Virus record (IMG/VR): IMGVR_UViG_3300036985_006490
Location: 64,001-128,000 of that record
Source of the DNA: a virus
Strand: one strand, 5' to 3'
DNA length: 64,000 nt
In this document: one piece after another, positions 37,622-64,000 of the stretch
How the letters are laid out: every line of letters begins with the position of its first letter
How positions within the stretch are numbered: the first letter of the stretch is position 1
Notes under the pieces: generated by a model
Database searches by the model: none
The model's input: the letters and a program-made list of their open reading frames with translations, nothing else
Told to the model about the DNA's origin: nothing
Program-made: the position numbers and the translations under genes

Positions 37622-37651
37622 TGTTTATAAATAGTTGTTCTGTTTTTTTTA

Positions 37652-41076: not shown

Positions 41077-41088
41077 TTCTTTATTTAT

Positions 41089-44010: not shown

Positions 44011-44158
44011 CTGTTTCCCCTCTATAAAAATTTATTGATATTATATCCATGTAATTATTGTTCCTATATAAATAACCAGATATTAGGTTTTATACATCCA
44101 ATAATATAGTTTTGTTGAAAACTAAATAAAGTAGTACCTCGATAATATTTATATGTGT

Positions 44159-44329: not shown

Positions 44330-44369
44330 TAATAGATTTTTTATATCATCTTTCATATATTTCTCCAAT

Positions 44370-50900: not shown

Positions 50901-51016
50901 ATAAAGGGGATTGGAATTGGTGTCCTGTTCATAAAGGCACTTCTCAACAATTTGAATGTCATACATCAATAACATCAGAAATGGTAATAAATAAAATACA
51001 AACCTTATTAAAATGA
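47924..51016 (+). CDS. three-domain glycosyltransferase: GT-A-like + GT4-like + Aah/TibC-type O-heptosyltransferase
   Basis: YIDSD (GT-A); APHLSTGGMP, KNQ, E-CNPLV-x-REA (GT4); SRSLGDTISW-x-PY, KFW, GLSSGLSW-x-x-WA, CNGCW...WCP...FEC (TibC Fe-binding Cys set). Confidence 0.82.
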   Translation: MRSFITHTTENYEHITLNLVKSINKYSDYKIIVYTIDYDGSDNLQKETTCIRLDLNLPSLDDSSFILDTNGNSYVNRPKIRTYLTLGAKIDAMLHATSIIDEWVYIDSDSIVNKNVDELFDHCNKITEFPLATLGPYEYVLITTPDGKLLGNPYWKENNTVDNENTLEWPLMKFMGINPNQRSHYRTTNILVGNSKTKDFLKIWKETKDILPKLVSLETIAPYHEETLYNVLIWKINPNHEGLPISYINVNSADRLNHFFKFVPIKKTTIDHFYVIPENKNDIKVFHGEKRQSEIDKMFEIIDNSKNTKVLFLAPHLSTGGMPSYLLKRIESLIQYTSDVEIFVAEFCEYSNLYTVQRNRIKELIPEQRFWTINTLSNHTVENSMKVIDIIKSNSIDIVHVDEMIEGFDSFNKVPNELKNALYNNDRTWRVVETCHNIWFDPNTLKQFHPDAYALCTPYHLENTFKEMPSHKEVFEFPIENNFRSREEQIKSQEILGLDSTKIHIINVGLWTSGKNQGEGIEIARHFQDRNVEFHFVGNQASNFESYWGPLMLNLPSNVRVWGERNDVETFMKASDILMFNSTWECNPLVIREAASLGLKIITRDLPQYVGMFKGLITPLSDEISNNVGLLRKLISSTRDYQILNGMTEEFTEKHYNLYKFLLTQEPIKNLKNNSKVHVKQFFVNEPFLEITGESDSEYDIKFFDESGICHYDNKIKSNHWIKLNRKYFTKWNTKILEDGVLIYDKTLDYKGKRVFINFDSRSLGDTISWIPYVLEFKNVHQCDVIVSTHLNHLFRDVYSELEFVEPGNVIHNIHGQYNIGWFYDVNKEPVLPNTIPLQQAATNILGLPYTEIKPRISYKIYDRPYKEKYITIATNSTAGCKFWTKEGWQELINHISSLGYKVVNVSKENNPFNNCEKLKNTEMDYTMNVIHHSEFFVGLSSGLSWLSWAMGKHVVMISNFTESNHEFTSNCTRITNPNVCNGCWNSPIHRFDKGDWNWCPVHKGTSQQFECHTSITSEMVINKIQTLLK

Positions 51017-51696
51017 ACTTAGACCAATTTGTTTGGGAACCAAAATGTTATGATGGATTCCGAGAAACCGTAGAAAAAGAAATATTTGTTGATAAAATAT
51101 ATGAAAGACACGTTCAGGTAGAAGAAGGTGATGTGGTTTTCGACATCGGGGCAAGTTTGGGTCCATTTACCTTTTCAATCTTAGATAAAAATCCCTCACA
51201 AGTTTTTGTATTCGAACCAAGTTACGAGGAATTCAAAACATTAGTCCTAAACACAAGACACGGAAATGTTACTCATATAAACAAGGGTATTGGTAATACT
51301 GTGGGTGAGTTTGATTTTACAGGTGTATTTGACGTATCAGGCGACCATAAGTTATATTCCACAACTTTTAGTAAGATAATAAATGATTACAACATTCAAA
51401 AAATTGATTTCTTGAAAACTGATTGTGAAGGTGGTGAATATGATATTTTTACTTTGGAAAATTTGTTTTGGATAAAAAACAATGTTCGAAAGATTTCAGG
51501 AGAATGGCATTTAAGAACTCCTGAATTGAAAGAAAAATTTAGAATATTCAGAGACGTTTATTTAAGAGTCTTCACAGATTTCAGAGTTTTTTCTTTTGAT
51601 GGTATTGACATTACTTGGTCTATTTGGAATGATGATTTCATTCCATATTACAAAGAAGTTATGATATACATTGATAATAGAGATACGTTTAAATAA
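51013..51696 (+). CDS. FkbM family methyltransferase
   Basis: VVFDIGASLG-x-F, FEP, IDFLKTDCEGGEY, GEWH. Confidence 0.85.
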   Translation: MNLDQFVWEPKCYDGFRETVEKEIFVDKIYERHVQVEEGDVVFDIGASLGPFTFSILDKNPSQVFVFEPSYEEFKTLVLNTRHGNVTHINKGIGNTVGEFDFTGVFDVSGDHKLYSTTFSKIINDYNIQKIDFLKTDCEGGEYDIFTLENLFWIKNNVRKISGEWHLRTPELKEKFRIFRDVYLRVFTDFRVFSFDGIDITWSIWNDDFIPYYKEVMIYIDNRDTFK

Positions 51697-52534
51697 TTTT
51701 TTTGTAATTGATTTTTAAGTCTTCCTCATTTAACATCGAGGGAATATAATTACTGAATTTTTGTGAAATATGATTTATTAGGTTTTTTGCATATCTTCTA
51801 TTGTGATTTGGTCCAGGATGCGCTCCATCCGATCCAAAGTCACTGAAACTACTGTAATCCCCGTCAAACCTGTTAAATTCTTGGTAATCTTTGGGAATGT
51901 TCAACCATCCATTCCATATCCAATTACATTTCTTCGTCTCCAAAAAATACTTTATCAGAAGATGATTTTTATACCAATTCATAAAATCTTCATAATCATT
52001 TTGTATTGCAGTTAAATTATTTTGTAATTCCCGACCGTCTTCAGTCTCCTCAGTATATCCCCATTGTGAAGTTATCATGAATGGCTCTAAACCTCCGTCT
52101 TTGGTATAGAGTTCCCTTCTATGAGGTTGAGTATACATAATTAAAACTAAGTCAGGTTTTATAAAATCATAATAAGTTATTAGGCACCTTGCGATAAAAT
52201 CATTACTTCGTCCTCCCACACCAAAGTTATGGTCAACTCCATTTTTAATTAATTTAGAAAATTGTGCAGGCCATGTTTCATCATTATTAACTCCAACACC
52301 TTCAGTATTAGAGTCCCCAATAGACATTATCTTAAACCCATCTTTATGTATTGAATCTCCTCTGAACCCTAATTCATTATAAGTATATGTACATAACCGG
52401 GTTTTATCTGAACCTGATGTGTGATATGACTGATTAACCTTTTCAGATAAATTCCATTTGTAACTTGATATTTCAAATCCTTTTGGAGTCCAATATTTAA
52501 TATTATCAACCGACTTAAAAAATATTTCATCCAT
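51689..52534 (-). CDS. SGNH-like protein
   Basis: YNELGFRG, GDSNTEGVG, NFGVGG-x-SN, DGAHPG. Confidence 0.7.
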   Translation of the reverse strand: MDEIFFKSVDNIKYWTPKGFEISSYKWNLSEKVNQSYHTSGSDKTRLCTYTYNELGFRGDSIHKDGFKIMSIGDSNTEGVGVNNDETWPAQFSKLIKNGVDHNFGVGGRSNDFIARCLITYYDFIKPDLVLIMYTQPHRRELYTKDGGLEPFMITSQWGYTEETEDGRELQNNLTAIQNDYEDFMNWYKNHLLIKYFLETKKCNWIWNGWLNIPKDYQEFNRFDGDYSSFSDFGSDGAHPGPNHNRRYAKNLINHISQKFSNYIPSMLNEEDLKINYKKII

Positions 52535-53610
52535 TATATTAGATTTTGTTTTTTTGAAATAAATTCTTGTAAATTATGCCAACATTGCTCCGAAGGAATA
52601 AATGAATTAACTTCCCGAACAAAGTCATCATAATCGGGGTGTGAAACATCCCAAACTTTTTCTGTTTCAAACTCTTCATGAGTAAATGTTCCCCAGTTAT
52701 TAATTTTTCCATAAAAAACATTAACTTTTTTTCCAAAAATTGACAACATTAAATCATAAAACATTTTCATTTCTTTATAATTTTTTTGTTGTACTACAAA
52801 AGAAGTTTTAATATTCTTCAAACCCCTTATAGTGTTAATGAATTTTAGATTTTCAATTAATTCATCCCAATTCCCACCAACTCTCACTTTATTTTCATAT
52901 GTATCTTTAATTGCGGCATCGATACTAATTTCACATGTTTTCACATATTTGTGAACTTTGGTCATTGATTCCCACATTTTTCTATCCCATCTTGTAGCAT
53001 TGGTATGAAGATGTATATGGGTTAAACTTGGCCATTTGTTCGAATCAAAGTTTCTGAGAAAATCTCTAAACCCAACAGAAAGGAAAGGATCCCCAGTTCC
53101 AGTAATGTATAGTCTTTTTGTTGTTTGTCCATATTGTGATTCAATCTCATCGATAGTTTTTTTCACTCTTTCAATTCCCTTGGAATTTTCTACTATCAAG
53201 TTTATACGACAGGATGGGCATTTGAGATTACAAGTTCTGTCGAATGAAAATTGTATTGTGGATGGTGGAGTCACAATTCCCTTTTTGAATGAATCTATCT
53301 TTGATTCCAAGTCCTTTGGTAGTCTATTTTTGTGATATAATACACTTGTGTTTCCAATTTCACCAAAATTTTCAAGTTGATGTAAAAAGGGACATTGAGA
53401 TTTATCACAGTGTCTAAAAGAACCATCTATTACAGATTCTCGTATTTCGTTTGCTTCAGATGACTCCCAAGCATCTTTTGGAGATGTATGTTGTGGTAAA
53501 TGTTTTTTCAACCAAGATGCACAACACAAAAATCTATCCTTTTCATGAATTTCAAGAGCGGCAAAAGGTACTCCACAAACATAATCTTTTAAATCTATCT
53601 CAGTATTCAT
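52534..53610 (-). CDS. N-terminal twitch/SPASM radical SAM protein
   Basis: C-x-x-PF...LCC...W...C-x-x-x-x-CP, CNLKCPSC, ITGTGDPF, TNA, ISIDA, FVVQ-x-x-N. Confidence 0.88.
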   Translation of the reverse strand: MNTEIDLKDYVCGVPFAALEIHEKDRFLCCASWLKKHLPQHTSPKDAWESSEANEIRESVIDGSFRHCDKSQCPFLHQLENFGEIGNTSVLYHKNRLPKDLESKIDSFKKGIVTPPSTIQFSFDRTCNLKCPSCRINLIVENSKGIERVKKTIDEIESQYGQTTKRLYITGTGDPFLSVGFRDFLRNFDSNKWPSLTHIHLHTNATRWDRKMWESMTKVHKYVKTCEISIDAAIKDTYENKVRVGGNWDELIENLKFINTIRGLKNIKTSFVVQQKNYKEMKMFYDLMLSIFGKKVNVFYGKINNWGTFTHEEFETEKVWDVSHPDYDDFVREVNSFIPSEQCWHNLQEFISKKQNLI

Positions 53611-53649
53611 TTATCTAAAATTATAAGACAATTTTTAGTTTTATCACCA

Positions 53650-54474
53650 TTATATGGAAGATTTGATTTTTTCTAAATGATTGAAAATTGGATAACCATC
53701 CCAAGTAGATTCGAACGTATTCGGCTTTGTCTTTGATATTAGATTTGGTTCATTCAATTCAATCCAATTGAATATTTGGTTTGAGATATATTCATAACCT
53801 AACTCATTTGGATGTTCACATATCAGTGATTTCATATTCGGATTATTAATGAAATTAGGAAAAATAGACTTTGTAAACTTCATTAAGTTTTTTGTGTTAT
53901 GTAATTTTTCAAAAAGTACGTTGTGATTGTAATCTACTGGTATGTAAAAAAATTTGTATTTTTTCGTTTGACAATGTTCTTCCATTATTTTTAGGTAAAA
54001 AATTTGTTCTAAAAATGGGTCTAAATCTATGTTATCAATAAATTTGATGTATTCCCTTCCAATATCATAACTGTGAACATTGTAAATATTTTTTTCCATA
54101 CTCGGATTTATGTTCAGTACTGAACACTCCCTATAAAAAGAAAACCTGCTTGGAATTGGTAATAACCAAATTAATAAAACATCGAATTCTTCTGATAAGT
54201 TTTTATCATAATATTTTTCGAACCACACTTTCAGATTTCCCGAAGTCGATGATCCACCAAATCCTAAATTTATTAGACAATCATAATTTATTTGTTTTTG
54301 AAGATTTGTCGGCCAAGAATATTTATGAAATCTTTCTTTACTTGGAAAATAAACTTCTTCAGTATTTTTATACTTGATTTTATTCTCAACTTTGTATGAA
54401 ACTACCTCAGGGGCATAACAACCAACACCTTCGGTAAATGAACATCCAATTGTTATTAAAAGTTTTTTTTTCAT
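53650..54474 (-). CDS. SGNH-like protein (G-C-S variant)
   Basis: IGCSFTEGVG, NLGFGGSS, HPNELGY. Confidence 0.65.
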   Translation of the reverse strand: MKKKLLITIGCSFTEGVGCYAPEVVSYKVENKIKYKNTEEVYFPSKERFHKYSWPTNLQKQINYDCLINLGFGGSSTSGNLKVWFEKYYDKNLSEEFDVLLIWLLPIPSRFSFYRECSVLNINPSMEKNIYNVHSYDIGREYIKFIDNIDLDPFLEQIFYLKIMEEHCQTKKYKFFYIPVDYNHNVLFEKLHNTKNLMKFTKSIFPNFINNPNMKSLICEHPNELGYEYISNQIFNWIELNEPNLISKTKPNTFESTWDGYPIFNHLEKIKSSI

Positions 54475-54491
54475 ACTAAATCATAACTTTA

Positions 54492-54986
54492 TTAGATGAG
54501 TTTGTTATTTTCTTTTGAAACAACATCTTCATGATTAATAAACATAATAACACTCCTACGAGTTCCCTTGGTGATTTTTTTCACCTCATGGTCATACTTG
54601 GATTCGAATACATACGGTACTCCAATTTCTTTTTCAATAAAATAATATGGGTCATAAACAATATAGTCTCCACCCTCATAATTATCATTCAAATGAAATC
54701 CTGTAACCAAGTATCTATTTTTACCATAAACATAATTATTATCAGTATGGCGTAGAAAATAGTCATTTTCTTTATACCTCATAATCACAAATTTTTGGTC
54801 ATAAGAATTTAAACTCAAATTTAATTTTGATTCGACCCATTTCAATAATTTTATTTTAACAGGAATTACTAAGTCAGATTCAATTATTTTAGCGTCATAA
54901 CTCCTATCCCGTTTGACAAAATATTCTAAATCATGATAAAGCGTTTCTATCGATTCGATTTCATCTTGAGTAATTAATTTCATCAT
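54492..54986 (-). CDS. 2OG-Fe(II) oxygenase (prolyl-4-hydroxylase-like)
   Basis: RY...F-x-x-HTD, LNDNYEGG, HEVKKITKGTR. Confidence 0.85.
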   Translation of the reverse strand: MMKLITQDEIESIETLYHDLEYFVKRDRSYDAKIIESDLVIPVKIKLLKWVESKLNLSLNSYDQKFVIMRYKENDYFLRHTDNNYVYGKNRYLVTGFHLNDNYEGGDYIVYDPYYFIEKEIGVPYVFESKYDHEVKKITKGTRRSVIMFINHEDVVSKENNKLI

Positions 54987-54994
54987 TATACCGA

Positions 54995-55441
54995 TTATAT
55001 TAAACTATTTTTTTTTATTGAAAGTGGATTATTATGCATAAACCCAACTAAGGTATATCTGTCTCCAATACAATCATTTACTTTATGTTGTTCATCACCA
55101 GAAAAATAAATCATATCTCCCGTTTTAGGTTTGTATTCTTTGCAACCAAAAATTACTTCACCTCCAATAAAATCCTCATTTAAAAAAATTATAAATGACC
55201 ATGGGTTAACATGTCCATGAAATGTCTCTATCTGTTTAATAGTTTCATTAACCATTTGAACTCGAATTTTTTTGAAAAAAAAATTTGAAAATTTTTGTAT
55301 AGTTAAATCTCTATTTATTAAATCTATATAGTAAAATTTATATACATTATCTCCATAATAATTCATTTTTTCATTATTAAACATATCAATGAAATATAAA
55401 ACTTCTTTTTCTTCCAAGAATGATTTCACATATTTTATCAT
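54995..55441 (-). CDS. 2OG-Fe(II) oxygenase (HxH variant)
   Basis: FHGH, FLNEDFIGGE, P-x-x-G, HKV...RYTL; start MIKY. Confidence 0.8.
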   Translation of the reverse strand: MIKYVKSFLEEKEVLYFIDMFNNEKMNYYGDNVYKFYYIDLINRDLTIQKFSNFFFKKIRVQMVNETIKQIETFHGHVNPWSFIIFLNEDFIGGEVIFGCKEYKPKTGDMIYFSGDEQHKVNDCIGDRYTLVGFMHNNPLSIKKNSLI

Positions 55442-55451
55442 AAGTTTATGT

Positions 55452-55919
55452 CTAAAATGGTTTATTAACGCAAATTTGACCAAAATGTGAGAATAGTAAA
55501 TAGCATTCTCCCTCCTCGATTTTACTTACTTGTTGGTTTGTAGATCTTCCATGAATTACTCCATACCCTGTAGTCATCTTGTTACGAACATTATTGAAAT
55601 AAAAATTTCCTCCTATAAAATCTTCATTTAAAAAAACAACAACAGTGAACGTCGTATGTCTATATAAACTTTTTTGATTACTATAATTAAAAGTATGGGT
55701 TGGTAATCTATATCCTTTTGATAATTTTATAATTCTGTTTTCAATTATTTCATTTACTGAAATCTTTTTGTTTTCATAAAGAATATTTTTCAATTTTGTA
55801 TCTAACCAATTGTATTTAATAAATTTCTGATAGTATTTGAAATCTTGGTCATACAGTTGCCATTCAGATTCGTTTGAAAGGAGTAAACTACATTCTTCCT
55901 TTGAAAAAAATTGATACAT
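55452..55919 (-). CDS. 2OG-Fe(II) oxygenase-like protein with degenerate metal ligands
   Basis: FLNEDFIGG core, but HTF in place of HxD and QQV/EC in place of H-x-V/R. Confidence 0.65.
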   Translation of the reverse strand: MYQFFSKEECSLLLSNESEWQLYDQDFKYYQKFIKYNWLDTKLKNILYENKKISVNEIIENRIIKLSKGYRLPTHTFNYSNQKSLYRHTTFTVVVFLNEDFIGGNFYFNNVRNKMTTGYGVIHGRSTNQQVSKIEEGECYLLFSHFGQICVNKPF

Positions 55920-55920
55920 T

Positions 55921-56520
55921 TTATATGATATTATTGGTATATTTAACTTGGTTTTCCACATCTAAACAAAAATTTCCAGCATACACGATTCTATCTAATT
56001 CAGATTTTGGGGTAGGGATTGCCGTATGTCTTATATTTGCCGGAAATATAAAAAAATCTCCTTCTTGTGGTAAAAATTTATGTCTTATTTTGTCTTCAGT
56101 TTCGAAAACAATATGCCCCTCATCTCCTTTAATATCTTTTGGTGTTTGTAAGTAATATGTGAACGTAAAGTCCGTCGTAATATTTGACCGACCAGGTGGA
56201 TGAACTAAAAGATGTTGGTGTAACCATTCCATATCAAACCCTTTGGTCTGAGTATATATCCAAAAATGTTCCGCATAATTAATAAACTTTCTATTTGAGA
56301 TTTCTTCTACGTATTTTTTAATTTTTTTATTAATTTGTAGAAAACATTTAGTGTTTATTTCCATCCAAATTGAATTCTCTTTTGTTTGAGTTTTGGTATA
56401 GATTACTGATGAATCATTTAACTTTGCATATTTAAGACAATCATCTTTTATATTCATAAATTTATCATCATGACCTTTATGAATAGTAAATGTCGTAGAC
56501 AACTTCAATTCTTGAATCAT
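55921..56520 (-). CDS. putative 2OG-Fe(II) oxygenase (TIGR02466-like)
   Basis: W...HQH, YYLQTP...G-x-I-x-F, P-x-EGD-x-x-IFPA-x-x-x-H, RIV-x-AGN. Confidence 0.8.
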   Translation of the reverse strand: MIQELKLSTTFTIHKGHDDKFMNIKDDCLKYAKLNDSSVIYTKTQTKENSIWMEINTKCFLQINKKIKKYVEEISNRKFINYAEHFWIYTQTKGFDMEWLHQHLLVHPPGRSNITTDFTFTYYLQTPKDIKGDEGHIVFETEDKIRHKFLPQEGDFFIFPANIRHTAIPTPKSELDRIVYAGNFCLDVENQVKYTNNII

Positions 56521-56954
56521 ATGATTTTTTTATCAATTTTTTCGTATCTCTGATAGTTACTGAGTATTTCCTCTCCCTTTTTAATATCTCTTATTGATTT
56601 CATACTATTTTTATCAATATTACTTTTAGTTTCATAATAACCACTGTTCACAAAATAATATGGGTTAGTATAAATCCAATGACAACTGTTAGTTAATTTT
56701 ACATAAATGCTAGTGTCTTTTGGGAAATCTGAGGAAAATAAAAATAAATCTTGAATGTGTTGACGTAATTCCTCATTCAATTCACTTAATTGGTCTTGAG
56801 TTATGGGGTAGAATCCTGTTTTACCCTCCCACAATTGAAACAAAAGTGTGTCTTTAACGATATCTTTTATCGCAAAAACTCCTATTCCTGAAATATTACT
56901 TGGTTTCAACTTTACAAAAACACAATTTTTTATGTAATTGTACGCATCCATCAT
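56517..56954 (-). CDS. SET-domain methyltransferase-like protein
   Basis: S-x-I-x-GIGVFAIKDI, FVNSG (NHS position altered), RDIKKGEEI-x-x-NY. Confidence 0.8.
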   Translation of the reverse strand: MMDAYNYIKNCVFVKLKPSNISGIGVFAIKDIVKDTLLFQLWEGKTGFYPITQDQLSELNEELRQHIQDLFLFSSDFPKDTSIYVKLTNSCHWIYTNPYYFVNSGYYETKSNIDKNSMKSIRDIKKGEEILSNYQRYEKIDKKII

Positions 56955-57103
56955 AAATGTTTATTCATAAACAATTCAAAAAATTTACCAATTACAGTTT
57001 CGACTCTTTCTTTTTCTGTAGTTGATAATTGTTCGGTTGTTCTGTTTTTAATTTGATTTAAGGACTTTTTTTTGTATAACTGAGGGTGTTTAGATATATC
57101 CAT
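56951..57103 (-). CDS. small protein (50 aa) between the poly-Hint and SET genes, absent from the ORF track
   Basis: MDISKHPQLYKKKSLNQIKNRTTEQLSTTEKERVETVIGKFFELFMNKHL*; ATGA-coupled to the SET gene. Confidence 0.65.
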   Translation of the reverse strand: MDISKHPQLYKKKSLNQIKNRTTEQLSTTEKERVETVIGKFFELFMNKHL

Positions 57104-57113
57104 GTTTGTAAAT

Positions 57114-59846
57114 TTATTTGTTATGTACTAATACTCCATTCGCATAAAAATTTTGATTGTCAGCAACTGAAATAATATGCGTTTGTGTGTTTATTCTTTC
57201 CAATTCTGTTATAGAAACAATCTCCAAGATTTCTCTGTTAGGTTTGGTTAATTTGTCCCCAATATTTATTTGTGTTACTTCCAAAGGAATATCATATCTT
57301 TCATTAGTCCACTTTGGTTTATAAGACGCAAGTTTTAATCCATTAACATAAAATGGGTGGTCAAATGTTGAAATGATTTCTGTATCATCAGAAAGTATGT
57401 ATTTAACTAAATCATCATGTATGGGTGAGTTTACTTCTGTAACTTCTCTTTCCTCCACAACATTTATAATTTCATTGTAAGACAATACTAAATCCCCCAC
57501 GTTAATCTCTTCAATATTTTTTTCTATTCCATTTCCCATCAAAACTTTAGTACCGCTTATAAAACAAGCTTTATTGTGGGTTAAAATACCATTAGCAAAA
57601 AAGTTATGATTATTGGTTACTTCGAAAATATAAGTTTGTGTTGGTTTGAATTCTAGTTCTTCAATTTTAGTAATTCTTGTATTCAATCCGTCAATTAAGT
57701 TAACATTATCTCCTACTTCTATTTGTGTGACATTATTATTAAAATTGTACCTATCGTTGGTCAATAAAGGTCTATATGACGACAAATTAAACCCATTTAT
57801 AAAAAATGGGTGGTCAAAAGTACAAACAATTTCAGTACCATTTTCAAAAGAATACTTAACCAAATCATCATGAATCGGTGTAATTATATTTGTTACGGTT
57901 TGATTTTCTTTTAATCCTGTTTCTAAATTAACTGAAACTACTATATCACCATTCGCAATATCTTCAATTGGTTTTGTAGTTCCGTCTGCCATTTCAATCA
58001 TTGTACCTTTTACAAAACATGCTCGATTATGTACCAAAACGTCATTAGCAAAATAATTATGATTAATTTCAACTTCAGACAAATTGTATACTTTAGTCTC
58101 TTCATTAACTACGGTAATTTTATCCAAAATAACATTTTTGTTCATTAATTTCACAGAATCTCCGATTTCAATTTTTTGTACTGGTTCACCTATTGTGTAT
58201 AATGTATTTGATAATAAATTGTCATAAGATGACCAACCCTTACCATTAACGAAGATTGGGTGGTCAGTTGTCGATTTGAGAGTACCCCCATTATCAAACT
58301 CATAAACTACAATTTTATCTATTTTTTTGGAAAATACATTTAATACTTTACTAACCTTTGTCTCATTACTATTGAAGTTGAATGACAATATAGAATCTCC
58401 AATTACAACATCTTCAATATTTTTTGTTGTACCATCTTCCATTTGAATTTTGGTACCTGCAACAAAACAAGGAGAGTTATATGATACAATACTATTGAAC
58501 GCCGTAGAACCATTTATTATATACGTATCGGTATCTTCAACATCAAGTTCAACGAATGCCAACCCAGTCTCGGGTGAAACATAGAAGTTTAATTCGTCAA
58601 CTTTAATCAAGTTACCTTCCAAATCATATACGTAATCAGTTACTGCGTTTATTTCAGAAATAAATTTAATACTACTTTTATCAGATATAGAATCATAAAT
58701 CAAATATTTTTTGTTAATACCTGAAAATAGCGAATCATTATCTATCACCATTTCCATCATTGCCCCATATTTGAGTTGTTTAACATCTTTGAAGACAACC
58801 TCGGAATTACTAATATAAGATCCATCAGGAAACTCACCTCCATCATAACTCCAAGTTAAAGCATTCAAATCAGTTTCAGCTTGAGGGGATCCATTAACTT
58901 TATAAGACTTTATGGTTTCACCAACTTGAATTTCGGACACTTCTTTCCAAGTTTCATCATTCATCAAAACTTCATGGGTAGACAAAATTCCACCCGAATC
59001 GTTTTTGATAAAATTTGTTGTGAATTCATAGTAATGATGGTCTTTAACTTTATTACCTTCCAATTCTATCGATTCAGGTAATTCAAATATAGAACTGATT
59101 TTATAAGAATGCAGTATCATTATATCCAAATTTCCCCCATAAACTATCCCAAAAACTCTTATTGATGTAATATGATTATCCTCATCTACACTTGATGGGT
59201 GAATGTGATATTGTTCAATTAATTTATTTTCATCAGAATTTTCAGATAAGAAATCATTCCAACAATTTTCAGATGTTCCTCCAGTTAAATTAATTTTGAA
59301 AAAATCAATTGGATTAAAAGATTCATATACATCCTTTATAGTTGCATCTGGTATGTTACCTGTATTTATTTCTTTTGTCAATGTATCATAAGTACCTACT
59401 GATGAAGAATGGTAATATCCAACACAATTATCAGTTATAAAGCTATCGGTGAACAAATTATAAACATTCAATCTATTTTTACAATACACACTGTCAAATA
59501 TTGCGGTTTCGTCGTAGGCTAATCTTAACACAAATTTATCGGCAGCATCCGCAACTGATGTTGGATAAATTGAATTAATATTCTCGTCATGTAAGTTGAT
59601 GACGATTGATGGTAGATTATTATTAACTTCTTCAACAAGTCTATTAACAAAATCTATGTGTAAAAATGGTTTATAGATAATGTCTAAAGTTGTGATGTTG
59701 TTTGACGATAATACTGATAAAAATCCACTAAAGTCAAAATTCACCAATTCCTGGTCGATAAACCCAGTATCCGTATTTAACTCTAATAATCTTAAATCAC
59801 CATTTGAGTCTTTTACAAAGTCTGCCGAAAATAACGTTCCTTTCAT
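57114..59846 (-). CDS. ATP-grasp-like domain fused to four tandem Hint (BIL-like) domains
   Basis: N-terminal ADF-x-x-D-x-NG-x-L-x-LLELNT plus K...IEQY...SIR; Hint1 (G286-N457, degenerate); Hint2 C460-N607, Hint3 C610-N758 and Hint4 C761-N909, each CF-x-x-GT...T-x-DHP...HN. Confidence 0.85.
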   Translation of the reverse strand: MKGTLFSADFVKDSNGDLRLLELNTDTGFIDQELVNFDFSGFLSVLSSNNITTLDIIYKPFLHIDFVNRLVEEVNNNLPSIVINLHDENINSIYPTSVADAADKFVLRLAYDETAIFDSVYCKNRLNVYNLFTDSFITDNCVGYYHSSSVGTYDTLTKEINTGNIPDATIKDVYESFNPIDFFKINLTGGTSENCWNDFLSENSDENKLIEQYHIHPSSVDEDNHITSIRVFGIVYGGNLDIMILHSYKISSIFELPESIELEGNKVKDHHYYEFTTNFIKNDSGGILSTHEVLMNDETWKEVSEIQVGETIKSYKVNGSPQAETDLNALTWSYDGGEFPDGSYISNSEVVFKDVKQLKYGAMMEMVIDNDSLFSGINKKYLIYDSISDKSSIKFISEINAVTDYVYDLEGNLIKVDELNFYVSPETGLAFVELDVEDTDTYIINGSTAFNSIVSYNSPCFVAGTKIQMEDGTTKNIEDVVIGDSILSFNFNSNETKVSKVLNVFSKKIDKIVVYEFDNGGTLKSTTDHPIFVNGKGWSSYDNLLSNTLYTIGEPVQKIEIGDSVKLMNKNVILDKITVVNEETKVYNLSEVEINHNYFANDVLVHNRACFVKGTMIEMADGTTKPIEDIANGDIVVSVNLETGLKENQTVTNIITPIHDDLVKYSFENGTEIVCTFDHPFFINGFNLSSYRPLLTNDRYNFNNNVTQIEVGDNVNLIDGLNTRITKIEELEFKPTQTYIFEVTNNHNFFANGILTHNKACFISGTKVLMGNGIEKNIEEINVGDLVLSYNEIINVVEEREVTEVNSPIHDDLVKYILSDDTEIISTFDHPFYVNGLKLASYKPKWTNERYDIPLEVTQINIGDKLTKPNREILEIVSITELERINTQTHIISVADNQNFYANGVLVHNK

Positions 59847-59939
59847 AATATGTTGTTAGTTATATATTAAATATCTTGTAGAGGTTTAATTTTTTTTATA
59901 TTTCTATCCCTTGTATTCAACCTCAACCAAATTAAAATT

Positions 59940-60482
59940 TTACAAAAGGGTTTTAGGACTTGAACTAGTTGTTCTTGAGATACAGATATGCGTAAGTTCT
60001 AAACTTTGTGATAAACTTAGTTGAAAATCAATTATATGGTATACTTCAGAAAAATTAATTTTATTGAATTGAACTCTTTTATTATGCTCCAAAGTATTCG
60101 GATATAGATTAATAATTCTTACTTTTTTATCAAGATTCGAATTAATTAACTCGAGTGAAGATTTTTGTAAACTTAATTTATTTTCTCTATAATCATCAAA
60201 ACTACCATTATTGAAGATGGCCGAAGTTAGAACGTTAAAAATAGTTTTATCCTGATATTTCCACAAGTCAAAAAGTTCTTCAAATATTTTTTGTTGGTAA
60301 ATCGGATGATATGTATTATTAATAAACACATCCAAATCTAAAACTTCATTTAGAATGTCTGTGTATCGTTTAAGGTCATACCCATTACTTCTTGAAAAAC
60401 CAAAAACTTCATGGTTTTTTTTCAAAAAATCATAAAGACCTCTACCCAAAGAATCACTGTGTCCTGTTATTCCTATCTTCAT
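59940..60482 (-). CDS. short-chain dehydrogenase/reductase-like protein
   Basis: IGITGHSDSLG, GFSRSNGYD, DVFINN, YRENK (YxxxK). Confidence 0.7.
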   Translation of the reverse strand: MKIGITGHSDSLGRGLYDFLKKNHEVFGFSRSNGYDLKRYTDILNEVLDLDVFINNTYHPIYQQKIFEELFDLWKYQDKTIFNVLTSAIFNNGSFDDYRENKLSLQKSSLELINSNLDKKVRIINLYPNTLEHNKRVQFNKINFSEVYHIIDFQLSLSQSLELTHICISRTTSSSPKTLL

Positions 60483-60991
60483 ATTAAACTAACACTACTT
60501 TTCATATTTTCCTTATATAAAAATATTATTAATGAATACCGAATACCACTTTCAATTTTTGTAACCTCATGTTCTCTTGTATTTTTGAAAGAATAAATTG
60601 TACCAGCTATTTTAGGAATAATTTGTGTAGGTTTATATAATACAAAATCACCTCCCACATAGTCATCATTCAAACAAACTCCAACATTCAATGTTTGATT
60701 AGGATAGTATATGTCACTATGTCTTTCAAATTCATTTCCGGCTATGTATTTGTGTAAATGTATTACTTCAAAGGGTTTGGTTATTTCGATATTTTGGTCT
60801 ATTAACAAATACTCAGTAATTTTATCAAAAATCCATTTTACCGACTCATTTCGATAAATATTATAATAAGTATACGATATTTTTTCCCTCGGTCTTTCAA
60901 CGGTTTTACTATTCACATCTCTGTGAGTACCCTCTATTTCTAAGGTTAAATTTATAATCTTATCACACTCTTCTTTAGAAAAACAAACCAT
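60479..60991 (-). CDS. 2OG-Fe(II) oxygenase (prolyl-4-hydroxylase-like)
   Basis: FSKEEC, KY...F-x-x-HSD, LNDDY-x-GGDF, HEVTKI-x-SG-x-RYSL. Confidence 0.85.
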   Translation of the reverse strand: MVCFSKEECDKIINLTLEIEGTHRDVNSKTVERPREKISYTYYNIYRNESVKWIFDKITEYLLIDQNIEITKPFEVIHLHKYIAGNEFERHSDIYYPNQTLNVGVCLNDDYVGGDFVLYKPTQIIPKIAGTIYSFKNTREHEVTKIESGIRYSLIIFLYKENMKSSVSLI

Positions 60992-60993
60992 AT

Positions 60994-61110
60994 TTAATGA
61001 TTGTAAATAAAAGGATCTCTTTTCTTTAATTCTTCAATTTTCTTTTTTAATTCTTTTTTTCTTTTTCTTTCCTTAATTTTTTTAAGGAACCAATCAATAA
61101 TTTTTTTCAT
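60994..61110 (-). CDS. small basic protein ending in DPFIY (38 aa), absent from the ORF track
   Basis: MKKIIDWFLKKIKERKRKKELKKKIEELKKRDPFIYNH*; ATGA-coupled to the carbamoyltransferase. Confidence 0.65.
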   Translation of the reverse strand: MKKIIDWFLKKIKERKRKKELKKKIEELKKRDPFIYNH

Positions 61111-62774
61111 AGTATTTTGTGTATTATATAATTATCTAAAACTAACAAGTCTAAATCAGTATCCTTAAAAGTTTCTATCGCGTCAAACGGAGTTAGTACC
61201 ATTGTTTTATCTTTAACGTTGAATGATGTATTCAATATAATTGGATACCCACTTAATTTTTCAAACTCAATTAATAAGTCGTGAATTACTGTATTTTCAT
61301 ACACAGTCTGAATTCTTGATGTTCCATCCACGTGAACAACCGCAGATAATTTATCTGCAAATTCTTCCCTTACTTTAACAATTTGATTCATGTATGGTAT
61401 ATCATCAATCGTATGAAAAAATTCATTTTGTTTTTCTTTAATGACCATAGGCGCGAAAGGACGAAACCCCTCTCTTTTCTTAATCAATCTATTAATTCTG
61501 GATTTCATATCGGGTACAGTAGGGTCGGCTAAAATAGACCTGTGTCCTAATGCTCTCGCTCCGAATTCGATTCTATCTCTATACCACCCAACTACTTTAC
61601 CTTCATGGATTTTTTTGGCTACGTATTTTATTAATGTATTGTAATCGTGAATTTCAAAAAAGTTCAAATTTTTAATGTGACCCATATAAAATTCAACATC
61701 ATACTTTGGCCCCAAAAAAGGATTCTTAGTTACTCTTTTGTTTAATTTTTTATTTTGTACAAGATAATGAATACAAGCACCAACACAGGACCCTGCATCT
61801 GATGGAGCAACTGGTATCCAAATTTTTTCAAAATCAGAATTGGATACTATCTTCCCATTCGCAGTACCATTGTATGCCGAACCACCTCCTAAGCAAAGAT
61901 TATTACTACCAAGATTTTTCAAACTTTTAATAATATCAAACAAAACTTCTTCGTATCTTAATTGAACTGCAGCCGCTAAATTTTGATGAATTGTAGTAAT
62001 TTCTTCTTCAGTTAATCTTGGTGAAATACCTAAATGTTCTATTAGTTTTTCGTTGAACATCAATTTTTCTGACTTATCCCAACAAAAAACATCCATGTCA
62101 CAGATTAATTCTCCATCTTTGAATTCTATTAAACTTCTAATTTTTTCAATATTCTCTTGAGGGTCTCCATATGACGCTAATCCCATTAATTTATATTCTC
62201 CTTCATTTGGTTTGAACCCCAAATACGAAGTCATTGTAGAATAATAAAACCCCAATGAATGAGGATATTTCCCCAAATCATGATATTCAATTCCATCATC
62301 ATCCGCCAAACCAAAAGATAATGTATCAATTTCACCAACACCATCAATAGACAAACAGATTGCCCTTTCAAAATCGGAAGTGAAAAAAGAATAATACTGA
62401 TGAGCTAAATGGTGTTCGGAGTAAAATACTCTTCCCTTAAATGGCCTCAAATGTTTATTTACATCTGAGATATTTTTTAAGATCTTAACTAAAGATTTCA
62501 AAGAATATTTCGGTGATTTAAAAAAGTTTTTCTTGATGTTACTAAGTACTCTTTTTAGTTTTAGATTGAGGTCTTCATAATAACAAACCATGTCAATATC
62601 GTCATAAGTTATACTATAATGACTAAAGATGTATTCAATTGTATTAATTGGAAAAGAACTATCGTGTTTAATTCCCGTAAATTTTTCCTCTTCACAAGCA
62701 AAGACTAACTCCCCGTCTTTGAATAGACAGACAGATGAATCGTGATAAAAAGATGAAATACCAAGTATGTACAT
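61107..62774 (-). CDS. carbamoyltransferase (CmcH/NodU/TobZ family)
   Basis: ILGIS-x-FYHDSS, EEKF-x-GIKH, EHH-x-AH, IDGVGE, EGEYKLMGLA-x-YG, EFGARALGHRSILADP, FRPFAP, HVDGTSR-x-QTV, LNTSFN. Confidence 0.95.
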   Translation of the reverse strand: MYILGISSFYHDSSVCLFKDGELVFACEEEKFTGIKHDSSFPINTIEYIFSHYSITYDDIDMVCYYEDLNLKLKRVLSNIKKNFFKSPKYSLKSLVKILKNISDVNKHLRPFKGRVFYSEHHLAHQYYSFFTSDFERAICLSIDGVGEIDTLSFGLADDDGIEYHDLGKYPHSLGFYYSTMTSYLGFKPNEGEYKLMGLASYGDPQENIEKIRSLIEFKDGELICDMDVFCWDKSEKLMFNEKLIEHLGISPRLTEEEITTIHQNLAAAVQLRYEEVLFDIIKSLKNLGSNNLCLGGGSAYNGTANGKIVSNSDFEKIWIPVAPSDAGSCVGACIHYLVQNKKLNKRVTKNPFLGPKYDVEFYMGHIKNLNFFEIHDYNTLIKYVAKKIHEGKVVGWYRDRIEFGARALGHRSILADPTVPDMKSRINRLIKKREGFRPFAPMVIKEKQNEFFHTIDDIPYMNQIVKVREEFADKLSAVVHVDGTSRIQTVYENTVIHDLLIEFEKLSGYPIILNTSFNVKDKTMVLTPFDAIETFKDTDLDLLVLDNYIIHKIL

Positions 62775-64000
62775 TACTGAAAATTTATTAAACTTTGAAA
62801 AAAGTTATAGTCTGTTTTATCTTCATACAAACTTGTAACTATATCTTTATTATGTTTGAACCTTTTTTTTGAGCTTTGATAAAATCCCTGTAATTGGTCT
62901 TTGTTCTTACTAACTCTCACAATTTCATCAATAATCATTCTCATTCTTTTTTGTGGATTTGGTTCATTATCATAACTTAAATCAAAGAAATCTTCAAAAA
63001 AATCTAATCCATATAGTTCTTTTGTCTTTTTAATGTGTTGATGGGTAGCAACAATTAATGGGAATTGTGAATAATAAAAAGGAATCAATGTCTTCTCAGT
63101 AATGTGAACTAAATTATCTTTTTCAAACTGAGACTCATTGACAATATTGATGTATGAATTTTTGTATGGATTATTTTCAAACATTATATTCCAATCTTGA
63201 CCTCCATCAGGGGTATCCACGTCATAATCCTCAAACTCACTTTTTTTAATATTAATATTTTTAAAAAAGTTTAAACTATTTTTTGTTTCGTTAACTAAAT
63301 CATCGTCAAATACTTTCAATAAAAAATCAGAATTTATATCTCCATTTTCTAATTTCATTGAGGATAGTCTATTTCCTCGTAAGAAAGACCAATCGGTATC
63401 ATCTAATAAATTATGGTGTTTAAGCGCGGTTAGAATACCTAATCTGTGTATAGTTAAATTTCTATTATAACACATGAATGTTTTTTCTTTGTTGTTCTTA
63501 AAGGGATAACCATCACAAAAATTTACAATATTCCTTGTAATTACCACTTGAAGTCTGTTTGAAACATGAACATTTATTTTAGAATTTATCTCATTTTTTA
63601 ATTGTGGTAATAACTGATTACCATTGAGAATAAAAACTTGTTCTGTTGGTATCCCAATCATTTTAAGTTGGTAGTCCGCGATTTTTATAACATATTCCAT
63701 GTCACATTCATGTTCCGTTATAAAAATAACTTTGAAGTTTCGATTTTTTTTCAATAAAAGTTTAATTTCTTCTGATAATGGGATATCTCTATGGTCTAAA
63801 ATATATTGCGATAAATAGTAATTTACATGTACCAAATGATAAAAATTTTCATCTTTTCTTTCTAATATTTCACTAACATTACCTATTTTATAATTTTCAA
63901 TTTCATACCATCCAGTGCCCATAAAATATTGAATCATAACTGTGTTAGTATTCTCACTCGATTCATCGGGTATAAGATTTAAAATTGTTTTATTATGATA
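62774..64000 (-). CDS. hypothetical glycosyltransferase-like protein, 5'-partial
   Basis: F-x-CYNR...HR, INIVNES, ITEKT-x-x-P, G-x-x-x-F-x-x-FFD-x-SYD; frame stays open from 63937 to the window end (YHNKTILNLIPDE...). Confidence 0.6.
   Translation of the reverse strand, partial: YHNKTILNLIPDESSENTNTVMIQYFMGTGWYEIENYKIGNVSEILERKDENFYHLVHVNYYLSQYILDHRDIPLSEEIKLLLKKNRNFKVIFITEHECDMEYVIKIADYQLKMIGIPTEQVFILNGNQLLPQLKNEINSKINVHVSNRLQVVITRNIVNFCDGYPFKNNKEKTFMCYNRNLTIHRLGILTALKHHNLLDDTDWSFLRGNRLSSMKLENGDINSDFLLKVFDDDLVNETKNSLNFFKNINIKKSEFEDYDVDTPDGGQDWNIMFENNPYKNSYINIVNESQFEKDNLVHITEKTLIPFYYSQFPLIVATHQHIKKTKELYGLDFFEDFFDLSYDNEPNPQKRMRMIIDEIVRVSKNKDQLQGFYQSSKKRFKHNKDIVTSLYEDKTDYNFFQSLINFQ

Follow-up and report, generated by a model that had tools for sequence, protein, structure and literature searches.

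A candidate virus-specific peptide/protein-tailoring module centred on a ligase/Hint protein in the glycan island of a large freshwater phage

The minus strand of a large uncultured freshwater phage carries a ligase/Hint module of ~11 kb, located at positions 51689-62774 of the window (the whole 64-kb stretch of DNA analysed). On balance, we favor the view that this region serves as a virus-specific module for peptide/protein tailoring, set within a larger glycan island of the host-recognition type. Its core is best explained, from gene order and conservation, as an obligate pair comprising the ligase/Hint protein (designated AGH) and a 50-amino acid partner. The ORF listing of the whole window contains 15 back-to-back minus-strand genes at 51689-64000, which bears out the count, in a previous sequence-only reading, of at least 15 contiguous genes, many of them translationally coupled. 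Start/stop overlaps of 1-4 nt are frequent (52534, 56517-56520, 56951-56954, 60479-60482, 61107-61110, and 62774). The features are as follows, all on the minus strand.

62774..64510 (in the window, 62774..64000), minus: 578-aa ORF, previously read as GT-like; cut by the window end
61107..62774, minus: NodU-type carbamoyltransferase, 555 aa, tail HKIL (Pfam Carbam_trans_N/C, E 5e-62 and 2e-55; NCBIfam NodU, E 1e-46)
60994..61110, minus: 38-aa Lys-rich peptide ending R-D-P-F-I-Y-N-H; overlaps the carbamoyltransferase stop (ATGA)
60479..60991, minus: canonical P4H-type 2OG-Fe(II) oxygenase, 170 aa, tail VSLI (Pfam 2OG-FeII_Oxy_3, E 2e-8)
59940..60482, minus: Rossmann/SDR-like protein, 180 aa, tail KTLL (weak SDR matches only)
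57114..59846, minus: AGH, 910-aa ligase/Hint protein (Pfam, AlphaFold2, VIA-align)
59007-59846, minus: AGH aa 1-280, circularly permuted ATP-grasp as judged from structure matches
58473-59000, minus: AGH aa 283-458, degenerate Hint H0, without Cys1 or block-B His and with YN at its end
58017-58472, minus: AGH aa 459-610, canonical Hint
57564-58016, minus: AGH aa 611-761, canonical Hint
57117-57563, minus: AGH aa 762-910, canonical Hint
56951..57103, minus: partner protein, 50 aa, the conserved small ORF directly after AGH
56517..56954, minus: SET-domain methyltransferase, 145 aa, tail KKII (Pfam SET, E 1e-6)
55921..56520, minus: 2OG-oxygenase-like, 199 aa, tail NNII; iron motif not canonical (Pfam 2OG-FeII_Oxy_3, E 3e-5, under the cut-off; hhalign to 2OG family, E 9e-5)
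55452..55961, minus: degenerate 2OG-like ORF, 169 aa, no tail; aligns with the 2OG paralogues
54995..55483, minus: 2OG-oxygenase-like, 148-162 aa by the start chosen, tail NSLI; HxD outside the canonical place (Pfam, E 7e-6)
54492..54986, minus: canonical P4H-type 2OG-Fe(II) oxygenase, 164 aa, tail NKLI (Pfam PF13640, E 3e-7)
53650..54474, minus: SGNH-like protein b, 274 aa, tail KSSI; block I G-C-S-F-T-E-G read from the translation; no Pfam match
52534..53610, minus: twitch-type radical SAM enzyme, 358 aa, tail QNLI (Pfam Radical_SAM, E 1e-7; best NCBIfam match twitch NF033640 (N_Twi_rSAM), E 3e-21, below cut-off)
51689..52534, minus: SGNH/GDSL-like protein a, 281 aa, tail KKII; the translation shows a GDS block (Pfam Lipase_GDSL_2, E 2e-4, under the cut-off)

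The limits of the module are set by a C-terminal tail, consensus K/N-x-[L/I]-[I/L], that is common to its enzymes. An [LI][LI] C-terminus is found in 9 of the 15 cluster proteins as against 8 of 201 proteins elsewhere in the genome (p 4e-8). The carbamoyltransferase is the 5' end of the tail-bearing set and SGNH-like protein a is the 3' end; SGNH-like protein b, which has homologues in close relatives, matches the motif in part. The 578-aa ORF has no tail, lies outside the module, and closes an upstream sugar operon of ~20 kb. Rather than a GT-like gene, it is a TPP-enzyme fusion with a Transket_pyr N-domain; its C-terminal domain matched no Pfam family, and the only hint of a glycosyltransferase is that a language model points weakly to GT10 (0.78). 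The other family names given to the cluster (carbamoyltransferase, 2OG, SET, radical SAM, and Hint) were recovered with Pfam/NCBIfam. The proposed extent of the cluster held for 51689-62774, but the minus-strand run does not end at 64000; it continues for ~20 kb into sugar-nucleotide genes beyond the window. An assembly artefact is ruled out, since half or more of the sampled words of the stretch are present in 16 runs besides the possible source (8 other freshwater/lake metagenome studies).

The AlphaFold2 model of AGH has a pLDDT of 94.6 (99-sequence alignment). In an unbiased VIA-align search, the highest-scoring matches other than Hints occupy ranks 27-38 (Z 8.5-10.5). These ranks hold 5oeu, 5oet, YgiC 7uka, GspS 2io7, 2wyo, 3kaj, 3n6x, 3k1t, and Cp1B 9cjn, all of them ligases of the GS/GspS clan or related entries from structural genomics, plus three interleaved Hint chains. 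Residues 1-279 match GS-like 5oeu with a Z of 10.5, YgiC 7uka with 9.8, and GspS 2io7 with 9.3, while trypanothione synthetase (Z 7.7) and yeast glutathione synthase (Z 7.6) appear lower; Foldseek matches AGH to YgiC with an E of 1e-5. Residues D9, E22, and D118 are invariant in the family alignment, and N24 is at least 90% conserved. As modelled, the N-domain is a circularly permuted ATP-grasp ligase of the GspS/YgiC/glutathione-synthetase type. Residues 283-458 align with 2lwy, a BIL from C. thermocellum (Z 19.4, rmsd 1.5, 138 aligned), and H0 in the model is a complete Hint fold, though catalytically degenerate.

Directly 3' of AGH, 78 of 80 loci have a 38-60-aa ORF (52 distinct sequences), and after dereplication the partner is the +1 gene in 48 of 52 lineages, at identities down to 31%. 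Family members of 43-53 aa have an invariant Y10, near-invariant K11 and H49, and a C-terminal amphipathic helix ending in K-H-[S/L/T]. The predicted complex of AGH 1-458 with the partner reached an ipSAE of 0.90, which is model confidence rather than measurement; the best of three controls reached 0.01. In an only approximate calibration (self-made alignments, ligands included), 58 of 80 solved complexes attained the mark, as did 2 of 110 mismatched pairs. Three runs had at least 94% of contacts in common, with a partner pLDDT of at least 87. The partner is predicted to wrap both the ATP-grasp and H0 domains. It sits on H0 strand 421-424, and the interface includes residues 447-448, close in sequence to the H0 C-terminus. 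Because the partner is conserved over its full length and nearly wholly buried in the model, a stable subunit fits as well as a substrate.

Pfam/NCBIfam models (AXH, Intein_splicing, and Hint) recognize three Hint stretches in AGH. Each canonical Hint has Cys1, T-x-D-H-P (block-B T-x-x-H), and terminal HN, and the spacers read SP, RA, and KA, followed by a final Lys, as the sequence-only reading described. That reading suggested that a precursor may be hidden between the Hint domains; in this version, the spacers would be excised, thioester-activated precursors modified by neighboring enzymes. The retained Cys1, block-B T-x-x-H, and terminal H-N would in principle permit cutting on both spacer flanks. 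However, among 115 AGH representatives of 440 aa or more, linkers are unconserved in length and sequence and often absent (none 18, AP 18, A 6, SP 5; also R, K, KK, and others). In addition, the number of canonical C-terminal Hints ranges from 0 to 3, and tailoring enzymes accompany one-Hint forms as often as two-Hint forms. A precursor hidden between the Hints is thus hardly credible, and the partner is the better candidate for a scaffold.

Neighborhood conservation, which the earlier reading had suggested checking in IMG/VR, supports its view that the genes around AGH act as one module, as does the common tail. AGH relatives fall into 263 clusters when grouped at 50% identity, and 227 IMG/VR contigs carry them. 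The 185,579 species genomes of cellular organisms yielded a relative on one 2.8-kb contig only; the N-domain was absent from the GenBank phage records searched, and a literature search found no published description of the module. A virus-specific module is the best explanation of this sequence distribution. Of 80 loci, 72-73 have a 2OG oxygenase within 10 kb of AGH, 44 a radical SAM gene, and 23 a SET gene. Downstream ORFs include 73 2OG genes among 401 compared with 19 among 369 upstream (p 1e-8).

The 2OG family of 54492..54986 is found in 48 of 52 lineages, enriched downstream of AGH, the radical SAM family in 28, the SET gene in 20 (mainly at +2 or +3), and homologues of the Rossmann/SDR-like protein in 11. 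The last had been called an SDR; its N-terminus is indeed Rossmann-like, but no family reaches threshold. Fifteen of the 52 lineages have the carbamoyltransferase upstream of AGH. The 38-aa Lys-rich peptide is nearly identical in 25 of 80 loci, and its gene directly follows the carbamoyltransferase gene wherever both are called. Of the five genes assigned to 2OG oxygenases, all are 2OG-like, but only those at 60479 and 54492 keep the canonical HxD...H...RxS in the alignment. The other three are non-canonical or degenerate, and 55452..55961 has no HxD/H/R residues and no Pfam match, with homologues in 28 of 80 loci. That only two of five paralogues have canonical iron ligands counts against the tailoring reading.

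Multiple 2OG genes are frequent in marine T4-like phages. The Hints could be selfish mini-intein cassettes and the neighbors genes of the kind commonly found in the hypervariable islands of large aquatic phages, with no joint function. Variable Hint number and linkers are in keeping with this, as are Hints only 35-48% identical to each other. We consider it very improbable, since the AGH-then-partner order is strict across lineages, terminal H-N-K is conserved in the family, all three PF13640 matches of the 162-kb record fall within the module, and unrelated enzyme families share the tail only near AGH. Across the 52 lineages, the tail is carried by 86 of 106 2OG, 30 of 41 radical SAM, 10 of 11 SDR-like, and 17 of 23 GDSL proteins, compared with 0 of 18 Hsp20 and 0 of 14 PhoH neighbors. 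Hint number does not correlate with the number of tagged enzymes (rho 0.02), which is a point against the tailoring reading.

Such a tail on many unrelated enzymes would also suit a ligase that reads C-termini. In a conjugation or tagging system, the ligase (with ATP) and/or a Hint thioester would join the partner, or the ligase itself, to target proteins such as enzymes with a K-x-L-I C-terminus or virion or host proteins. This arrangement would resemble BUBL/BIL-mediated isopeptide conjugation, pupylation, or LysW-type carrier loading. The nearest characterized folds (glutathione synthetases, GspS, and YgiC/YjfC) activate a peptide C-terminal carboxylate, and YgiC/YjfC are described as peptide-spermidine ligases (PMC12568646). 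LysX/ArgX carrier-loading ligases are also among the structure matches (Z 6-6.7). Tetrahymena BUBL BIL2, which forms a Lys isopeptide without ATP (PMC8616854), is among the best Hint matches, and the conserved Tyr-Lys of the partner and its modelled place on the H0 strand point the same way. However, the tail could instead be a docking or sorting signal, and AGH members without any canonical Hint exist, so Hint chemistry cannot be essential. We regard conjugation as unlikely.

The genomic setting raises another possibility. The module is nested within a ~40-kb glycan island, a position that weighs against the tailoring reading. GT9, GT1/GT9, and FkbM genes lie on one flank, and a TPP E1-like pair, RmlC, PhyH, GMD, epimerases, DegT, DUF5672, UGD, and B12-rSAM on the other. 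The enzymes could therefore be the tailoring end of the island and decorate a sugar polymer (virion glycan or host LPS/capsule), with AGH and its partner an unrelated insertion. The sugar genes on both sides, the NodU-like carbamoyltransferase, and a tail in 9 of 20 members of the X-domain family (which has a GT10-like lead only) favor this scenario. Comparable host recognition clusters with glycosyltransferases and radical SAM cassettes occur in pelagimyophages and cyanomyophages (PMC7029224). NodU-type carbamoyltransferase, SGNH, and twitch radical SAM families also tailor glycans, which likewise speaks against the tailoring reading. On the other hand, the order AGH-partner-2OG/SET/radical SAM persists in many loci flanked by PhoH, Hsp20, and similar genes rather than sugar genes. 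The tail marks enzymes adjoining AGH but only 1 of 22 epimerases, and SET and P4H-type 2OG domains are protein-modifying families. Moreover, the sub-block from AGH to SGNH-like protein a (51689-59846) is flipped in one piece in close relatives with respect to the FkbM/GT flank, without the CarbT/SDR segment. These features make decoration of a sugar polymer unlikely.

We return to the tailoring reading, in which the partner would be a scaffold, either substrate or carrier. The ligase would make an ATP-dependent amide bond at a C-terminal carboxylate or the invariant Lys. A changeable set of enzymes (P4H-type 2OG oxygenases, SET methyltransferase, twitch radical SAM, SGNH-like and Rossmann proteins, and carbamoyltransferase), recruited or recognized through the common tail, would then act on the ligase-bound scaffold. 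Cleavage is the main reaction of BIL domains that lack a +1 nucleophile (PMC7664689). All three intact BIL-type Hints lack this nucleophile and so should self-cleave rather than splice. Self-cleavage would trim the ligase and expose or transiently thioester-activate its C-terminus. On this reading, the C-terminal Hints are accessory to the core, and their spacers are linkers rather than products. The cluster might instead decorate virion proteins or DNA, as the earlier reading suggested, but no specific support for DNA modification was found. The probable role of the module is to make a decorated peptide or protein, or to attach one.

The gene block at 51689–62774 on the minus strand is built around AGH, a 910-amino-acid ligase/Hint protein (57114..59846), and is best explained as a virus-only tailoring module. 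Its region contains 15 contiguous minus-strand ORFs, many of which overlap by 1–4 nt. When AGH residues 1–455 were searched against 1.84 billion cluster representatives, 263 clusters were recovered; the full-length relatives share the start Met and fall into length classes that match 0, 1, 2, or 3 C-terminal Hints. AGH relatives are found on 227 IMG/VR contigs, while among 185,579 species genomes the gene occurs on one 2.8-kb contig only (a Cyanobium MAG). The N-domain of AGH was detected by tblastn in no GenBank phage record, since the matches in Vibrio and Ruminococcus phage proteins covered their Hint regions only, and a megablast search of the 12-kb block against GenBank phages returned no match. 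Databases label the protein “intein/homing endonuclease” or “hypothetical”, and in the literature on ATP-grasp with Hint/BIL, or on tandem BILs in phages, we found no description of the ligase/Hint fusion, its small partner protein, or the C-terminal tail common to the cluster enzymes.

AGH residues 1–458 have no significant match in Pfam, NCBIfam, or PHROG; sub-threshold matches to the Pfam family GSP_synth appear in 7 of 99 relatives, with a best E value of 0.006. Folding of residues 1–460 from the single sequence gave a pLDDT of 35 and was discarded in favor of a model based on a 99-sequence alignment, in which the N-terminal 458 residues reach a pLDDT of 94.6. In this model residues 1–279 align from residue 1 with circularly permuted ATP-grasp ligases (Z 8.5–10.5 over 206–230 residues), namely glutathione-synthetase-like proteins, YgiC, GspS, homoglutathione synthetase, and the E-64 ligase Cp1B; the structures 5oeu, 7uka, 2io7, 2wyo, and 3kaj score Z 8.9–10.5. 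Trypanothione synthetase follows the permuted ligases at Z 7.7, and for classical ATP-grasps (RimK, LysX, TTLL) the alignment starts only near residue 50, with Z 5.7–6.7. Foldseek likewise matched the ligase fold to YgiC (E 1e-5). Judged by its predicted fold, AGH 1–279 is a permuted ATP-grasp of the GspS/glutathione-synthetase clade. Among the 99 relatives, whose identity falls as low as 21%, D9 and E22 never vary and N24 reaches a conservation of at least 90%; these residues fit the ATP-grasp metal site and by analogy would bind Mg and ATP. AGH thus resembles GspS, YgiC, YjfC, and eukaryotic GS in fold and in the conserved D...E-x-N metal set, but differs from them in being fused to Hints, in having an obligate small partner, in being confined to viruses, and in falling outside the curated families. 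YgiC and YjfC are peptide-spermidine ligases, as cited in PMC12568646. Because its characterized fold relatives (glutathione synthetases, GspS, YgiC/YjfC) activate the C-terminal carboxylate of peptides, the natural candidate substrates of AGH, which we infer by analogy, would be the C-terminus of the partner or the enzyme tails.

The ligase domain is followed by Hint domains. AGH 283–458 (H0) comprises a whole Hint fold that aligns with the BIL of C. thermocellum (PDB 2lwy; Z 19.4) and with BIL2 of the Tetrahymena BUBL locus (6y75/6tmm; Z 18.6–19.1); BILs of these two kinds are the best matches of the AGH Hints both by structure and by profile (hmmsearch E 8e-6). H0 is degenerate: Cys1 and the block-B His are missing, and its last two residues are Y-N. 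The Pfam families Hint, Intein_splicing, and PT-HINT match AGH three times. The three Hints concerned, H1–H3, contain C459, C611, and C762, a T-x-D-H-P motif, and a terminal H-N, and have as their +1 residues R, K, and K, none of which is nucleophilic; in some relatives the Cys of the next Hint directly adjoins the preceding Hint. A BIL without a nucleophilic +1 residue undergoes cleavage rather than splicing (PMC7664689), and by this rule H1–H3 are predicted to be BIL-type domains that cleave and do not splice. A canonical intein was rejected as an explanation: the Hints are C-terminal and in tandem, the extein past them is a single Lys, and an endonuclease domain is lacking. In BUBL, the BILs border ubiquitin-like domains; those of bacteria are located within secreted or variable proteins. 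AGH shares with 2lwy and BUBL BIL2 the Cys1, the block-B His, the terminal His-Asn, the non-nucleophilic +1 residue, and the lack of a homing endonuclease; its Hints, however, are arrayed in tandem at the C-terminus, nearly abutting one another and with one Lys after the last, and its first Hint, unlike BILs, is catalytically degenerate and, in the model, apparently used for partner binding.

The sequence-only reading had suggested that the precursor of a biosynthetic pathway might lie between the Hints. The number of Hints varies, and among 115 representatives of at least 440 amino acids the inter-Hint linkers are absent (18), AP (18), A, SP, R, K, KK, or one of many singletons. Because they vary in sequence and are often absent, we regard these spacers as linkers and not as conserved products, and a precursor hidden between the Hints is unlikely. 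Docking sites for the tail-bearing enzymes were also rejected as a role for the Hints: Hint number would need to track the number of tagged enzymes, and the two do not correlate (rho 0.02, p 0.9). Most members of the family end in V-H-N-K. In relatives P0003, P0025, P0031, P0038, P0053, and P0060 and loci L017, L018, L021, L025, and L040, the last Hint is truncated, lacks the terminal H-N, and is followed by another conserved tail (..T-F-K-R-Q.. or ..Y-K-R-Q..K-H-L), a layout that recalls the Hint and sterol-recognition region of Hedgehog.

The sequence-only reading had suggested gene-neighborhood conservation in IMG/VR as a check on the cluster, and the neighborhood proved to be conserved. 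We fetched 80 loci from the 227 contigs (31–77% identity) and dereplicated them at 85% identity to 52 lineages. A 38–60-amino-acid ORF comes next after AGH in 78 of the 80 loci, with a gap mostly between –1 and about 30 nt, and an ORF of 43–53 amino acids occupies the +1 position in 48 of 52 lineages. Here this partner is a 50-amino-acid protein encoded at 56951..57103 (minus strand), with no match in PHROGs or NCBIfam. Fifty-three distinct partner proteins can be aligned over their full length: Y10 is invariant, K11 and H49 are nearly so, the C-terminal helix is F-rich and amphipathic, and the ending is K-H-[S/L/T]. The conserved positions (Y10, K11, H49, and the helix) are spread along the whole peptide around a more variable, Ser/Thr-rich middle.

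With both proteins supplied as alignments, prediction of AGH 1–458 (with ATP and Mg) in complex with the partner scored 0.90, compared to 0.01 for the best control. Three runs agreed in at least 94% of contacts, and the partner had a pLDDT of 88–91. Of 80 solved complexes, 58 score at or above the pass mark, as do 2 of 110 mismatched pairs; these counts hold only roughly here, given our own alignments and the included ligands. In the predicted interface nearly all partner residues touch AGH; Y10 and K11 lie on the H0 strand 421–424, and the C-terminal helix packs on ATP-grasp residues 8–20 and 121–140. The model supports binding of the partner to AGH and is equally compatible with a substrate and with a subunit.

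Beyond the partner, the +2 position is occupied by a 2OG oxygenase in 19 lineages, by SET in 15, and by one unassigned family in 7 (41 of 52 together). With the small partner gene at +1, this order gives the RiPP-type arrangement of a short gene adjoining modifying enzymes. 2OG oxygenases account for 73 of 401 downstream ORFs versus 19 of 369 upstream (Fisher p 1e-8); radical SAM genes are present in 28 lineages and SET in 20. The carbamoyltransferase and a 38-amino-acid peptide named for its DPFIY motif are found in 15 lineages, always upstream of AGH. By hhalign, the recurrent neighbor families F4, F9, and F17 showed no relation to the 2OG, SET, and GDSL families.

Pfam and NCBIfam bore out most of the families named from the sequence, including a NodU-type carbamoyltransferase, P4H-type 2OG-Fe(II) oxygenases, SET, and radical SAM (nearest twitch family NF033640); the GDSL/SGNH signal is weak, and SGNH_b has no match in PHROGs or NCBIfam. 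For the 180-amino-acid “SDR”, the likeness is limited to a Rossmann-type N-terminus. The “GT-like” ORF turned out to run past the window end: in full, to window position 64510, it encodes 578 amino acids, and its N-terminus is a transketolase pyrimidine-binding domain. When the five 2OG-like paralogues are aligned, the iron triad and 2OG-binding motif (HxD...H...RxS) are kept only in the genes at 60479 and 54492 and are missing at the aligned positions in those at 54995, 55452, and 55921. All three PF13640 matches of the 162-kb record fall within the block. The radical SAM gene scores 32.2 bits against Radical_SAM, above the cut-off of 29.5, and 76 bits against N_Twi_rSAM, below the cut-off of 170; C-x3-C-x2-C is visible in its translation. 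Two further radical SAM proteins of 445 and 698 amino acids lie outside the module (window 27019–28356 and genome 150866–152962, both minus strand), and this genome is unusually rich in such enzymes. The DPFIY peptide (60994–61110, minus strand) is Lys-rich, ends in R-D-P-F-I-Y-N-H, and has no family match, PHROGs and NCBIfam included. It is near-identical in 25 of 80 loci, in which identity to this AGH goes down to 35–37%, and its gene lies directly 3' of the carbamoyltransferase gene wherever both are called, here with an ATGA overlap.

Many of these enzymes share a C-terminal tail of the form K/N-x-[L/I]-[I/L]. An [LI][LI] ending is present on 9 of 15 cluster ORFs versus 8 of 201 elsewhere in the genome (p 4e-8); the cluster tails are KKII, QNLI, NKLI, NSLI, NNII, KKII, KTLL, VSLI, and HKIL. 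Across the 52 lineages the tail occurs on 2OG oxygenases (86/106), radical SAM (30/41), SDR-like (10/11), GDSL (17/23), and SET (15/25) proteins and on one unassigned family (26/31). It is rare or absent on Hsp20 (0/18), PhoH (0/14), epimerases (1/22), AGH itself (2/52), and the partners (0/48). Because it marks the cluster enzymes and not Hsp20, PhoH, or epimerases, the tail defines the module as 51689–62774. That these genes merely adjoin one another with no joint function is unlikely. The sub-block 51689–59846, spanning AGH through the last SGNH gene, has been inverted as a unit in close relatives with respect to the FkbM/GT flank, independently of the carbamoyltransferase/SDR segment. Only AT-rich chance pairs were found as flanking inverted repeats, and we therefore attribute the inversion to rearrangement during evolution rather than to a switch. 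Relative to window 51013–59846, loci L004, L006–L009, and L011 (approximately 73–77% identity) carry the flipped AGH–SGNH block directly after FkbM, with one or two added genes between the 2OG paralogues. Endings of K-K-L-I, K-T-L-I, or K-K-I-L also occur far from the module, at genome 13216–14682 (plus strand), 43916–44833 (minus), and 54747–55370 (minus) and at window 29050–29619 (minus). These ORFs have no Pfam family and may be outlying members of the tagged set; a Pfam search of five dispersed tail-bearing ORFs in this genome gave no match.

The module is embedded in a glycan island of approximately 40 kb, as indicated by a sugar operon on one side and GT9, GT1, and FkbM genes on the other. 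The minus-strand run extends about 20 kb past the window end.

Features of the island and of a repeated domain
Genome 126774–148325 (from window 62774 on; loci L002 and L003), minus strand: sugar-nucleotide operon of approximately 20 kb
First part of this upstream operon: E1-type TPP subunit, RmlC, PhyH, GDP-mannose dehydratase (GMD), two epimerases, DegT, DUF5672
Rest of this operon: GDSL protein, UDP-glucose dehydrogenase (UGD), 760-amino-acid epimerase fusion, B12-radical SAM, second DegT
Other flank, plus strand: GT9, 1030-amino-acid GT1/GT9 fusion, FkbM methyltransferase
Window 62774–63937 and genome 13216–14682, 45609–46724, 46734–47720, 137073–138386, 138383–139717, and 140916–143198: paralogues of a domain of about 380 amino acids

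The E1-type TPP enzyme of the operon is split into a 210-amino-acid TPP-binding part and a Transket_pyr fusion, a pair that hints at a branched-chain or two-carbon-extended sugar. The repeated domain of about 380 amino acids is found in at least seven paralogues of this genome on differing N-terminal domains (Transket_pyr, epimerase); the one lead on what it is, a weak one, comes from a language model and points to GT10 fucosyltransferases (0.78), and the K-x-L-I tail is found on 9 of 20 members in related loci. This island context suggests a rival reading in which the block carries out plain glycan tailoring; the limits of the tail-bearing set leave the carbamoyltransferase inside and the TPP fusion and sugar genes outside. 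In its setting the island resembles the hypervariable “host recognition clusters” of pelagimyophages and cyanomyophages: both are large, and both combine fibre-like proteins and radical SAM cassettes with glycosyltransferases and sugar-nucleotide enzymes. Searching the paper on those clusters by term revealed no ligase/Hint-partner module and no common tail (PMC7029224). Three very large proteins without a Pfam family (728, 830, and 973 amino acids; window 35435–44010, minus strand) lie head-to-head with the GT operon; should virion proteins be decorated by the module or by the glycan genes, these three would be candidates.

The source record, an IMG/VR virus record, is 162,812 bp in length, with a CheckV completeness of 49%; the window covers its bases 64001–128000 and has a G+C content of approximately 30%. 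At least half of the sampled words of the stretch are present in 16 runs besides its possible source, which belong to eight further studies on freshwater or lake metagenomes and indicate that the stretch is real and widespread; no RNA run is listed among the public runs that contain it. Searches of the 162-kb record for NCLDV capsid, T4 gp23, T4 portal, and phage sheath proteins gave no match, the first three having had no working positive control. Because these hallmark searches were empty, the virus type rests on gene density, co-directional overlapping genes, and the neighbors in related loci (PhoH, Hsp20). The window contains no tRNA genes. Promoter-like sites (81 versus 89 in shuffles) and terminator-like sites (4 versus 4.1) are no more frequent than in shuffled sequence, so they do not set operon limits.

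Together, these results are best accommodated by a tailoring module in which a GspS/YgiC-type amide ligase would clamp a small scaffold protein, on which the tail-bearing oxygenases, methyltransferase, radical SAM enzyme, SGNH-like proteins, and carbamoyltransferase would then act, with the intact Hints as self-cleaving accessories. RiPP graspetide/microviridin clusters likewise place a small conserved ORF beside an ATP-grasp ligase and a changeable tailoring set that includes radical SAM and 2OG enzymes, and the F-rich amphipathic helix of the AGH partner, which binds the ligase in the model, adds to the likeness. However, graspetide ligases belong to a RimK-like clade and AGH to the GspS/GS clade; the partner shows conservation over its full length rather than a clear division into a leader and a variable core; and the common C-terminal tail sets the module apart. 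Hint domains are not known from RiPP pathways. LysW with LysX/ArgX similarly pairs a protein of approximately 50 residues with an ATP-grasp ligase, followed by enzymes able to act on the tethered substrate, and LysX/ArgX are among the fold matches of AGH (Z 6.0–6.7). The partner, in contrast, lacks the zinc ribbon of LysW and its acidic EDWGE-type C-terminus, the ligase clade differs, and the tailoring enzymes, unlike those of the LysW system, belong to protein-modifying families.

A conjugation system of the BUBL, Pup, or LysW type is a further rival, and finds support in the ability of BUBL BIL2 to make Lys isopeptides without ATP (PMC8616854). We consider rather unlikely its more specific form, a new post-translational conjugation machine of large aquatic phages in which a Hint-aided (thioester/succinimide) ATP-grasp ligase would read the K-x-L-I tag on swappable enzymes and join these enzymes, or the partner via its invariant Lys, covalently, forming a complex or attaching them to targets in the virion or the host. 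Such a machine would be a viral analogue of ubiquitin, Pup, or BUBL tagging that shares none of their components.

If the tailoring module works as we propose, phages widespread in lakes and oceans would make or attach decorated peptides or proteins by an undescribed route. Its unusual features would be a permuted ATP-grasp ligase with a dead Hint as peptide clamp, live Hints as self-removing tails, and a short C-terminal address common to unrelated tailoring enzymes. RiPP and carrier-protein chemistry would then extend to a viral branch, and the module, perhaps also a source of new protein-ligation and self-cleavage parts, would account for what the many orphan 2OG oxygenase genes near an AGH-type ligase in aquatic phage genomes do.
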